From contig KZ538262.1 in NCBI GenBank assembly GCA_000934665.2, positions 1 through 64,000 on the forward strand: DNA of 64,000 bases. The letters run 5' to 3'. The position numbers and the translations under genes are program-made. Position 1 is the stretch's first letter, and the number at the start of each line of letters is the position of its first letter. The notes beneath the pieces were generated by a model. The model was not told the origin of the DNA and ran no database searches. It saw nothing but the letters and a program-made list of their open reading frames with translations. This document shows positions 54,424 to 57,400 of this stretch, piece by piece. This DNA is from Catajapyx aquilonaris (lineage: Eukaryota).

Positions 54424-57400
54424 TTAAGTGGTGACGTCCCATATCTCGGCTAGGAATGGTGGCAGCTTCTTGTTTTTGAGCTTGAGCGAGAAGCACATCT
54501 CCGAGTTGAGGTTCCCCAGGGTGCGCAGCTCCGTAAGCACTGAGAGGAGCTTGGCAAACATTGGGGTAGGCCTTGCCCTGCGGAAGTCCACATACGCCCT
54601 CAAGGCTTCCAGGTATATCTCCTGGATCTTTTCTACCTTGCGAGGTTCCAGCAGAGCAGGCCTCTCTGTTGGGATAAGGAATTAACCATGAGCAACCTCT
54701 GAATCAGAACAAATTGAATTAATCTTGCTTATCAATGCAATACTTCTGTATGATCAAACCTGACTTGTTTTTCTTAGCCCCAAGAAGAGTGACGGATAAC
54801 TCACCCGAGAAGATGACAACAGCGGTGAGCAGGGCGTACTCGGAGTTGTCTACCTTCATGCTGCACATCTGCCTGCAGAAGTGGAAGATGGCCTCTGCAG
54901 AGTCCCCTACCCCAGCCATGCTGTAGTTCTCCAGGTTGTACGGATGGTTGTTTGCAAACAGGATGGTGTCTGTGTCTGCATCGTACCTCCTTGCGGTCCT
55001 CAGCATCATCACCTCGCTCGAACAAGCCTGGAAAAACAGGAGAGGCTCACAACATGCCACAACTAGCAAGCTGACACTGGAGCTCTAAAAGGTGCTGCTC
55101 CCATCCCATCATGCAATGCATGCATAAAATAGCCTGTCTTCGTGGAATTAGGCATAGCCTCTATATGACTTGTCTCCCATTTAAAAATAACTGATGCATT
55201 TTCTGCATGCAAAACTTCTCGAAAAATGTGTCATTACTAGATGAATGGTGCAAATTATTGCAATGCTCAGGGTTTGGTAATTAAGTGAATGTAGCTGAAA
55301 TCAGTTTTACTTCATTTTTAATTTTCAAATTAATTTTTATTATTCCATTACTAAATGAGCACATTCTTTAAAACACATCCCACTGTCTTGCCTACTAAAA
55401 TTACATTATTTAAGGAGACAATAATTTAAATTACTGCTTTAAGATTGAATTTAAGAAACGTTTTTCAACGAGGAAAAATAATATGATTCCCGCATAAGGT
55501 AAAGCTAAGTATTCCCCAGTGCTTCCAGTGTCAAAATATGAAATATGAGATATGATCTGCATTTTGACATAAGTAGCTCTGGGGCAGACCAATGTAAAAG
55601 TAAGGGGCAGGAATAAAGGTTCGGCAGACGTTAACAGTGTCCATGCATTAAAATAACCCCTAGAGATAAAATTACTGCTCAGTATTACCGTTGCATTTAA
55701 AATTGACCTCCACTATGAAGTACAAATAATCCCACCACCAACTTGGTCCCATCTTAAACGTGTTTTAAAAACTAGACCAAACTGCAGAATAATAATAATT
55801 GTAACGGATGAACTTCTTCCCTGTCATAATGGTTAAAATCATGCATTTAAAAAATACCACACCATTATCAATCTGGCTGAACTTGCAGAAAATACAGTGT
55901 GTCACACCTGAGTGACCTGAAGAGTGTCTATATTTTGGTGGGGGGGAGGGGGGGGGGCACCATAATTTTAAAAAACCGTTGGGTGTGGGGCGGGCCAAAG
56001 ACCTAATCCTGCCAATACCTTGAGCAGAGTAATCTGATCTTCCCGTAGTAAAGTATCGAACCCGGGAAGCCTCTTGGAAAACTCCACTGTGAGCTGCACA
56101 GTGAGGATGGTCATCTCCGTTATATGCTTGAATTTCGTCTCACTCTCGTCTGCATTGAGGGGGTAGTCCTAATGGGGTGTGTTTTCATACATTTTTTTTC
56201 CGGAGGTAATGGAGGTACGGGTCCAATTTGAGGATAGGTAGGTAGACAAGGTGGAGAGGGTAGAGAAAAAGAGAAAACAAAATAGTAAAAGTGATGTACC
56301 TTCAAAAGCGTAATCTGGTCCTCCCGCAGGAGTTTGTCGAAGCCTGGGAGCCTTTTTGAGAACTCCACTATGAGCTGGACTGTCAAGATGGTCATTTCCG
56401 TGATGTGCCTGAACCGCACATCGTTTGCGTTCTCGCCCTCGTAAGGGAAATGCTACATGGCCATCCCGCCATCATCGCACCGAAGGAAATGCATTGGTTT
56501 ATAGGTAGGTCAAGGGTTTTTTTGTGTTTTCGGGTTTGGAGTTTTTTTGGCGGAGAGAAAAAGAGAGAAAATAAAAAAAATTGAGGCAATCAGAGGACAG
56601 CGCTGACAAGAGAATTTGAATTGAAACAAGTAGGTTTTAAAAGTCTGGGCTGACCATTTTTCTTCAGCCCAGACTGGGTTTGAACCAGATTGTTATGAAT
56701 GCAAAAATTTTACCCTTGCTGTAAACTGACAGATGTGCAAGATAACTTCTCTTCAGTTGCAAGCATTAGAAAGCAACATCCTCCCAACGCATCATAAAAA
56801 TGCCAATGTTTAGCTAACTTGAAAGAAAACTTAGTCACCATTGATCTACCCTTGTCCCACAACTAAGTTGAAAATCAGGTAAAATTTTTGCTGCACTCTC
56901 ACATTAAGCGTAGTCTGGCAACAAATGCTACTGATACAACAAAGCTTAACTGACAATAATGTTACTGCGTGGCACTCGGTGTACATTTCTCGCATCTGCT
57001 GCATTGTTGTCAGACTCCACAACAAATATTTGCCATGTCCATCTCCACAGTTCATTCCCATCAATTAGCAGTTAAAAAATAAGCAAACAGAGCAAATATA
57101 CGAGTAACCACACAGTACCTTGAACAACCAATGTCTAAAGCTGACAAACCACAACACCACAAGAGTCAGATTCACCAAAAACAAACAAAAATCAAAGAAC
57201 AGGTTTGTAAGTAGTATAATGAATTGAAGACATTCACAGGACTCGCACTCTCAATTGTACACACACACATAGCACATACATCCACGAAAGATTGTCAAAA
57301 AGACACACATACACCACAAGACGCACATGATTACGCAGTAAAAATGCAGCCACTTTCAAAGACAGAAGTACTCAAGTTAAAGAACTGCTGAAAAAATAAT

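Follow-up and report, generated by a model that had tools for sequence, protein, structure and literature searches.

The ecdysone receptor (EcR, NR1H1) acts as the master switch for moulting in arthropods and is targeted by diacylhydrazine insecticides, and its textbook hexapod isoforms differ only in the N-terminal A/B domain. Isoforms of the ligand-binding domain (LBD) have so far been taken as a crustacean, in practice a decapod, pattern (PMC5636884). The present analysis concerns the EcR gene on contig KZ538262.1 of the Catajapyx aquilonaris assembly GCA_000934665.2, within a stretch of 64,000 nt (positions 1 to 64,000, hereafter the window), where two adjacent paralogous exons, a and b, each encode the same portion of the LBD. 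The pair is confirmed as a real, old tandem duplication with both copies kept by purifying selection, and inclusion of one copy or the other most likely yields two receptors from this gene: an a-form and, as we infer, a b-form.

Isoforms of the E region are described as common in crustaceans and as unusual among insect nuclear receptors (PMC5636884). Table 1 of that report gives the D and/or E regions as variable in 10 of 11 crustaceans, with A/B-only variation in Daphnia and all 20 insects. The decapod LBD substitution comprises 150 nt and 49-50 amino acids and is documented from cDNA and from the Eriocheir gene in two reports (PMC5636884, PMC4388526), which bears out the statement of an earlier, sequence-only reading of this DNA that such variants occur in decapods. 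The sequenced EcR gene of Eriocheir sinensis holds two alternative 150-bp units, an event that the authors term exon skipping plus intron retention and not a duplicated, mutually exclusive exon (PMC5636884). The LBD forms of Callinectes are reported to differ in pocket hydrophilicity (PMC4388526).

The decapod isoforms compared with the window pair are Es-EcR-4 versus Es-EcR-1 to -3 of Eriocheir sinensis, CasEcR1/2 of Callinectes sapidus, the 49-aa substitution of Macrobrachium nipponense, and those of Scylla, Uca and Homarus. Both systems share the protein position, after ...EEDLK.I. and before ACSSEVMML, together with the phase, the 150-nt size and, in models containing both exons, the order a then b; decapod a and b also group with window a and b, respectively. 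They differ in that window exon a measures 153 nt against 150 in decapods, and window b carries Thr (QLTVEF), as in branchiopods, whereas decapod b carries Ile. For the decapod isoforms there is cDNA support; in the window gene RNA contigs support only the a-form, and the window EcR falls outside decapods, as sister to a collembolan clade. Since what appears to be the same pair is known in decapods, variation of this kind has already been described, and the novelty implied by the sequence-only reading was overstated; the hexapod-side lineage and the implied age are what is new. No report of a duplicated mutually exclusive EcR exon, of its age or of collembolan LBD isoforms was found in the searchable literature, outside which most subscription papers lie. 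The insect isoforms EcR-A, B1 and B2 resemble the window gene in being alternative products of one EcR locus, but differ from one another in the A/B domain. EcR-A1, A2 and B of Daphnia magna possess an exon core identical to that of window b at 36 of 36 residues, including QLTVEF and FDTLL; unlike the window pair, they vary in A/B only, according to PMC5636884, and no a-type exon was seen in the Daphnia proteins examined.

Coordinates are those of the window, and the EcR gene is read on the minus strand, on which all of its features given below lie. Exon a (56300..56452; 153 nt, phase 0, 51 amino acids) is assigned as a-type by Pfam Hormone_recep, spliced contigs and the exon tree, and exon b (56019..56168; 150 nt, phase 0, 50 amino acids) as b-type by Pfam Hormone_recep, a frame check and the exon tree. 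Between them lies the 131-nt a-b intron (56169..56299), which by tract and AG scan contains no AG ahead of its acceptor. The boundaries, with a slash at each exon edge, read ...CCATGTAG/CAT ... AAG/GTACAT for exon a and ...CCCATTAG/GAC ... AAG/GTATTG for exon b, so that these neighbouring paralogues, alike in phase and nearly so in length, both have AG and GT intact. Exon a is translated into 15 divergent residues followed by a 36-residue core, and exon b into 14 followed by a core of the same length; the cores differ at 2 of 36 residues, QLIVEF against QLTVEF and FDK against FDT. A repeat search recovers the two exons as a direct repeat of 117 nt with 77% identity, and Pfam Hormone_recep is matched by exon a at E 3e-05 and by exon b at E 3.6e-05. 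With either exon, the reading frame stays open through to the stop at 54426..54424. Re-reading the minus strand reproduced exactly the exon coordinates, phase, spacing, translations and splice sites of the sequence-only reading.

Comparison of a with b over the last 34 codons gives 14 identical, 18 synonymous and 2 replacement codons, the same counts as reported earlier, and over the 36-codon core 14, 20 and 2, respectively. Third positions of the core are identical at 15 of 36 sites and first and second positions at 67 of 72, and the NG86 method yields a proportion of synonymous differences (pS) of 0.80, which is saturated, and a proportion of nonsynonymous differences (pN) of 0.067. Synonymous saturation combined with just two replacements in 36 core residues therefore establishes an old duplication with purifying selection acting on both copies, as the sequence-only reading had proposed.

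The splicing data are contigs assembled from one public run (X1; share 0.49, kind not recorded as RNA), the only source covering the locus, and assembled contigs lose rare variants. Seven X1 contigs lie on the locus, all at least 99% alike and spliced GT..AG on the minus strand, with six joints. The joint 56452>58001 links exon a with the constitutive upstream exon (58001..58201; 201 nt, tblastn and also joint 58201>58311), which encodes the hinge end and helix 1 (...EEDLKRIS). The joint 55026>56299 links exon a with the constitutive downstream LBD exon (54806..55027; 222 nt, ACSSEVMML..., Pfam, tblastn and also joint 54665>54805), jumping exon b. Given these two joints, which correspond to the junctions 58001>56452 and 56300>55027 predicted in the earlier reading, the a-form is produced with exon b skipped. 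The co-inclusion joint 56300>56168 does not occur among the X1 contig joints, contigs being unable to show absence. We infer mutually exclusive use of a and b in this gene; of the earlier proposal to that effect, the part concerning exon a, joined on both sides with b skipped, stands, while no b-containing transcript was seen in X1 or among collembolan-like proteins.

A search of the protein collection gave 591 matches for exon a and 274 for exon b, the best 120 of each being examined. Among the matches listed, eight proteins match twice, their gene model or read-through open frame spanning both exons: Homarus americanus, Procambarus clarkii X4, three Petrolisthes models, Allacma fusca and two further contigs. 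An all-against-library search for further proteins with both exons found, in the best 150 of 266 matches, only P0006 and P0007 with two stretches; P0221 (3384 aa, eight stretches) was rejected as an unrelated giant model. Decapod proteins with b only come from Petrolisthes, Scylla, Procambarus (X16/X19), Cherax, Homarus, Panulirus, Portunus and Callinectes, cDNA-derived records included, and those with a only from Cherax and Palaemon. All named insect proteins examined have a single a-type exon (..P.EGED.SD.RFR, QLIVEF, FDKLL), and Daphnia magna, Artemia and an ostracod have a b-like exon. The 36-aa core of window exon b recurs unchanged in Daphnia magna EcR, the Allacma-like exon b and P0128. 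Chelicerates show FPLGDSEED..RFQ with FDTLL, so FDTLL is taken as ancestral and FDKL as derived.

Two side observations concern these proteins. The decapod models P0001-P0005, of which P0002 is Procambarus clarkii X4, read a and b in tandem and hence helix 3 twice; such models are probably annotation artefacts of an alternative pair, or else reflect rare co-inclusion. P0169 and P0170 (Diprion similis 'ecdysone receptor-like' X3/X4) have an a-type insect exon with Thr at the Ile/Thr site (QLTVEF), the state of the b-type exons in the window, Allacma and branchiopods.

The a/b exon tree called for in the sequence-only reading was built from 40 hand-picked proteins of 340 plus the two window exons, giving 46 rows and 51 columns with a chelicerate root; three further picks were dropped, the pattern not matching them. 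Each copy groups by type, with model-dependent support. The a-clade (95/84) unites window a, collembolan a, insects and decapod a, and the b-clade (88/83) unites window b, decapod b, Daphnia, Artemia, Darwinula, Allacma-like b and the b copy of P0006. Window a and b as sisters are rejected by the approximately unbiased (AU) test (p-AU 0.0004). The reading favoured by these sequences is that the pair arose once, before the hexapod-malacostracan split, insects having kept a and cladocerans b. A fuller version, in which the pair has been one mutually exclusive module since before that split (roughly Cambrian) and has provided two LBD subtypes ever since, with hexapods nearest Collembola and decapods keeping both, insects losing b and cladocerans losing a, is a real possibility that we put forward tentatively.

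The protein region encoded by the pair was examined on an AlphaFold2 model of the LBD of the collembolan-like P0009 (30-row alignment, mean predicted local distance difference test (pLDDT) score of 75). According to this model and the alignment to solved EcR LBDs, which agree with the assignment made in the earlier reading, the exon segment comprises the coil connecting helices 1 and 3 (H1-H3), the whole of H3, the H3-H4 loop and H4. The model puts the Ile/Thr site within the final third of H3 and the Lys/Thr site on the H3-H4 loop. Most of the differences between the a- and b-forms fall in the connector and the initial turns of H3 (14-15 residues), with Ile/Thr and Lys/Thr in addition. The two forms may also differ in ligand, USP or coactivator behaviour, as the sequence-only reading suggested. 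Common to a and b is the stretch EMTILT, in which residue Thr343 presumably lies. Thr343 hydrogen-bonds ligands, and helix H2 and the beta-sheet rearrange by ligand type, according to a structural report (PMC7953031).

Both exons are multiples of three, and co-inclusion or double skipping keeps the frame without a premature stop; nonsense-mediated decay would therefore be unable to police the choice. The donors are weak (GTACAT at exon a and GTATTG at exon b, versus GTGAGT at three constitutive exons), and the pyrimidine fraction ahead of the acceptor is 0.36 for exon a and 0.45 for exon b, versus 0.77 and 0.64 at two downstream exons. Upstream of exon a, an AG scan delimits an AG-free zone of 148 nt (56453..56604), and a composition scan places a pyrimidine tract at about -140 to -100 (56552..56592). 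A 21-nt stretch is 86% identical between the tracts upstream of a (56554-56574) and b (56262-56282). The AG-free zone of exon b covers 129 nt, the whole a-b intron, and both zones compare with 65, 20, 1, 16 and 29 nt at the gene's other five acceptors; on the minus strand, 13 of 3778 AG-free gaps reach at least 129 nt. Within the a-b intron, the tract at +6 to +70 from the exon a donor (56294..56230) has a pyrimidine fraction of 0.85, the remainder being purine- and A-rich (0.49). A motif scan finds the sole yUnAy motif of this intron, and with it a candidate branch-point A, at 56286, +14 from the exon a donor and 117 nt from the exon b acceptor. The a-b spacer is likewise short elsewhere: 108 nt in an Allacma-like contig and, with coding sequence counted in, no more than 105 nt in P0006.

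The distant pyrimidine tracts and AG-free zones suggest steric hindrance via a distant candidate branch point. The branch point of exon b probably lies, with its pyrimidine tract, directly behind the exon a donor, and splicing from this donor to exon b would be blocked by steric hindrance in the short AG-less intron; with the branch point in that place, the exon a donor could not splice to exon b. Exons 2 and 3 of alpha-tropomyosin are mutually exclusive through a distant branch point near the upstream donor. As in the EcR pair, the tract of the downstream exon begins just past the upstream donor, at a distance from its own acceptor, with a long AG-free run to the acceptor and a short intervening intron, the EcR branch point being a motif-based candidate. 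Unlike alpha-tropomyosin, exons a and b of EcR are true paralogues, and the upstream exon a shares the distant-tract layout, which steric hindrance does not require.

Taken as a whole, we consider probable an account that combines ancient tandem duplication, either-or inclusion, two receptors, a probably pre-split origin and a steric block. Several observations weigh against it, touching the use of exon b, the age of the pair and the proposed block. No contig of X1 covers 56010-56210, which includes exon b, though the neighbouring intron is covered. A collembolan-like b-form, sought among 11 further b-like proteins, was not found, all 11, of which 10 were compared over the downstream exon, being nearer Daphnia than Collembola. 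Some decapod gene models contain both exons in tandem, so co-inclusion is possible in places. Since contigs lose rare variants, the lack of cover on exon b says nothing of b being unused; it agrees, together with the direct joining of exon a to the downstream exon, with exon b being an unused relic (a preserved pseudo-exon) in a gene that makes only the a-form. The purine-rich stretch ahead of the exon b acceptor and the weak donor point in the same direction, as does the b copy of P0006, whose very long branch (1.82) and 4 core changes look like relaxed constraint in that contig. Yet the signals of exon a are equally weak and exon a is used, and despite synonymous saturation between the copies exon b retains its open frame, AG and GT, where neutral decay would have destroyed it. 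With its core also unchanged relative to Daphnia EcR and the Allacma-like exon b, such a relic appears improbable. That the copies are haplotypes or an assembly duplication set in tandem can be practically dismissed: 23% of the core bases differ, the initial 42-45 nt are unalignable, the flanking introns give no alignment (32 of 65 and 31 of 70 columns match), the contigs match the window without differences across the exon a junctions, and separate assemblies, those of Allacma, Homarus, Procambarus and Petrolisthes, contain the tandem pair too. The core divergence and unalignable flanks therefore rule out a haplotype or assembly duplicate, the latter as the sequence-only reading had argued, and equally a recent copy.

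As regards age, the single origin relies on 51 columns, and support for it is called model-dependent because the AU test does not reject all hexapod-like exons as one clade (p-AU 0.065) and because under LG+G4 the two independent-duplication constraints together are 13.9 log-likelihood units worse and likewise not rejected (p-AU 0.144). Both values leave room for independent duplications of the same exon in the hexapod-like and decapod lineages, with the likeness of a (GED.SD.RFR) convergent and that of b retained from the ancestor. Chelicerates have an acidic N-terminal stretch as well as FDTLL, so that the likeness of b exons is partly a shared ancestral character. No a-type exon occurs among the branchiopod, ostracod, copepod-like and barnacle-like proteins examined, and P0134, a cladoceran-like contig, runs from the upstream exon through 25 codons into a b-type exon with no a-type between; a single origin therefore needs several losses. 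Against separate duplications, the decapod copies join their hexapod-side counterparts by type in the free tree (a with hexapod a, b with window b), monophyly of decapod a and b is rejected under the mixture model (p-AU 0.019), the two groups agree in exon order, phase and length (150-153 nt), and window b and decapod b have a common opening DY and KFK motif, making two events rather unlikely. As regards the block, 6.1% of mononucleotide shuffles of the a-b intron are likewise without AG, because this intron is G-poor, and its AG-free state is thus partly compositional. Exclusivity could instead come from competing intronic RNA pairings of the docking/selector type, or from tissue-specific splicing factors acting on two weak exons: 131 nt is long enough to splice given a nearer branch point, and weak donors with poor near-acceptor tracts on both exons are common in regulated exons. 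Perfect complementary 12-mers in the pre-mRNA 58250..54900 number 4, against a shuffle mean of 0.5, with 1 of 100 shuffles reaching 4, but there is no excess at k=10 or k=11, where 23 and 13 of 100 shuffles reach the observed number. The perfect pairs listed (I5, I19) form local hairpins within the intron that precedes exon a, without enclosing a single exon. Long-range candidate pairs exist at 56173-56185/55370-55382, flanking exon b, and at 56200-56215/58120-58135, but are 81-92% matches of 13-16 nt, and the shuffle controls cover perfect k-mers only. Among the listed inverted repeats, no docking/selector pairing convincingly brackets a single exon. Mutually exclusive clusters governed by docking-site and selector sequences include Dscam exon 6 and 14-3-3 xi, which like the EcR pair are made up of tandem paralogues in one phase, with a single exon selected (in EcR, probably so); unlike them, EcR has two exons only, with no conserved docking/selector pairing identified. 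Pairing or factor control is possible, though we doubt it as the source of exclusivity.

Some sequence features of the surrounding introns are recorded in addition. The intron upstream of exon a contains two perfect inverted repeats, a 12-nt hairpin with a 10-nt loop at 56642-56675 and a pair of 14-nt arms 163 nt apart (56701-56714/56878-56891), which may represent a small inverted-repeat element or else a structured portion of the intron. GCATGC/TGCATG stretches at 55105-55211, in the intron downstream of exon b, are mutually complementary (I6, I7, I8, I14) and also complementary to 56484-56505, 32-53 nt upstream of the exon a acceptor; TGCATG is the Rbfox-type splicing-factor motif.

With either-or inclusion of a conserved second helix-3 exon here and in the Allacma-like contigs, some hexapods would probably be able to make two receptors differing in pocket entrance and helix-3 surface. 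For the evolution of ecdysteroid signalling, this suggests two receptor subtypes in the ancestor, one of which was later lost in particular lineages. If the pair is an ancestral module, LBD diversity would be ancestral in pancrustaceans and no decapod peculiarity, and it may be asked whether retention of both forms accompanies moulting throughout adult life and the use of at least two circulating ecdysteroids. Springtails are standard soil test animals, and in ecotoxicology a second LBD could respond differently to EcR agonists. For annotation, the pair matters as gene models fuse both exons or drop one. The 131-nt intron also offers a compact test case for the exclusivity of in-frame paralogous exons where including both or neither keeps the frame.

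The gene is the ecdysone receptor by several lines of sequence evidence. Its DNA-binding domain is encoded by a first exon at 59183..59357 (Pfam, tblastn, contig joint 58786>59183) and a second at 58646..58787 (Pfam, tblastn, contigs), with zf-C4 matches at E 2.4e-10 and 4.4e-17, followed by a 118-nt hinge exon at 58311..58428 (tblastn, contigs). The last coding exon, ending in the stop (...EIWDVTT*), lies at 54424..54665 (tblastn, contigs, frame check), and Hormone_recep is matched on three exons. By tblastn, the DNA-binding and LBD exons are collinear on the minus strand, and they are joined within spliced contigs. Among the matches listed, nearly all named matches of exons a and b are ecdysone receptor or unnamed product. 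Solved EcR LBDs score 54-76 bits versus at most 43 bits for LXR and FXR, the nearest solved chains being the EcR LBDs of Tribolium (2NXX), louse (4OZT, 4OZR), Bemisia (1Z5X) and Heliothis. In a 31-row EcR tree that left out the a/b segment, the window EcR is sister of Orchesella and four further relatives (Shimodaira-Hasegawa-like approximate likelihood ratio test (SH-aLRT) support 93), within the pancrustacean EcR sequences but outside insects, decapods and branchiopods; its top identity is 85%, to Orchesella, a placement that suggests a springtail or a closely related non-insect hexapod. Upstream of 59357, a contig continues for 183 letters into sequence absent from 54000-60000, so A/B-domain exon(s) are expected further upstream or outside the window.

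Elsewhere in the window, a satellite-like tandem array occupies 45506-47795, with a 16-nt unit (GTAACCCATATAGAGC) in about 150 copies at 66% matches, on which longer periods of 41, 57, 71 and 73 nt are superimposed; the array yields long spurious open reading frames and long AG-free gaps on the minus strand. Downstream of EcR, 24433-29055 on the minus strand contains long open frames carrying a pair of WW domains along with FF domains, resembling a TCERG1/CA150-like transcription elongation regulator. An open frame at 11381-11944, also on the minus strand, matches part of a trypsin-like serine protease domain (Pfam Trypsin, E 1.3e-06).

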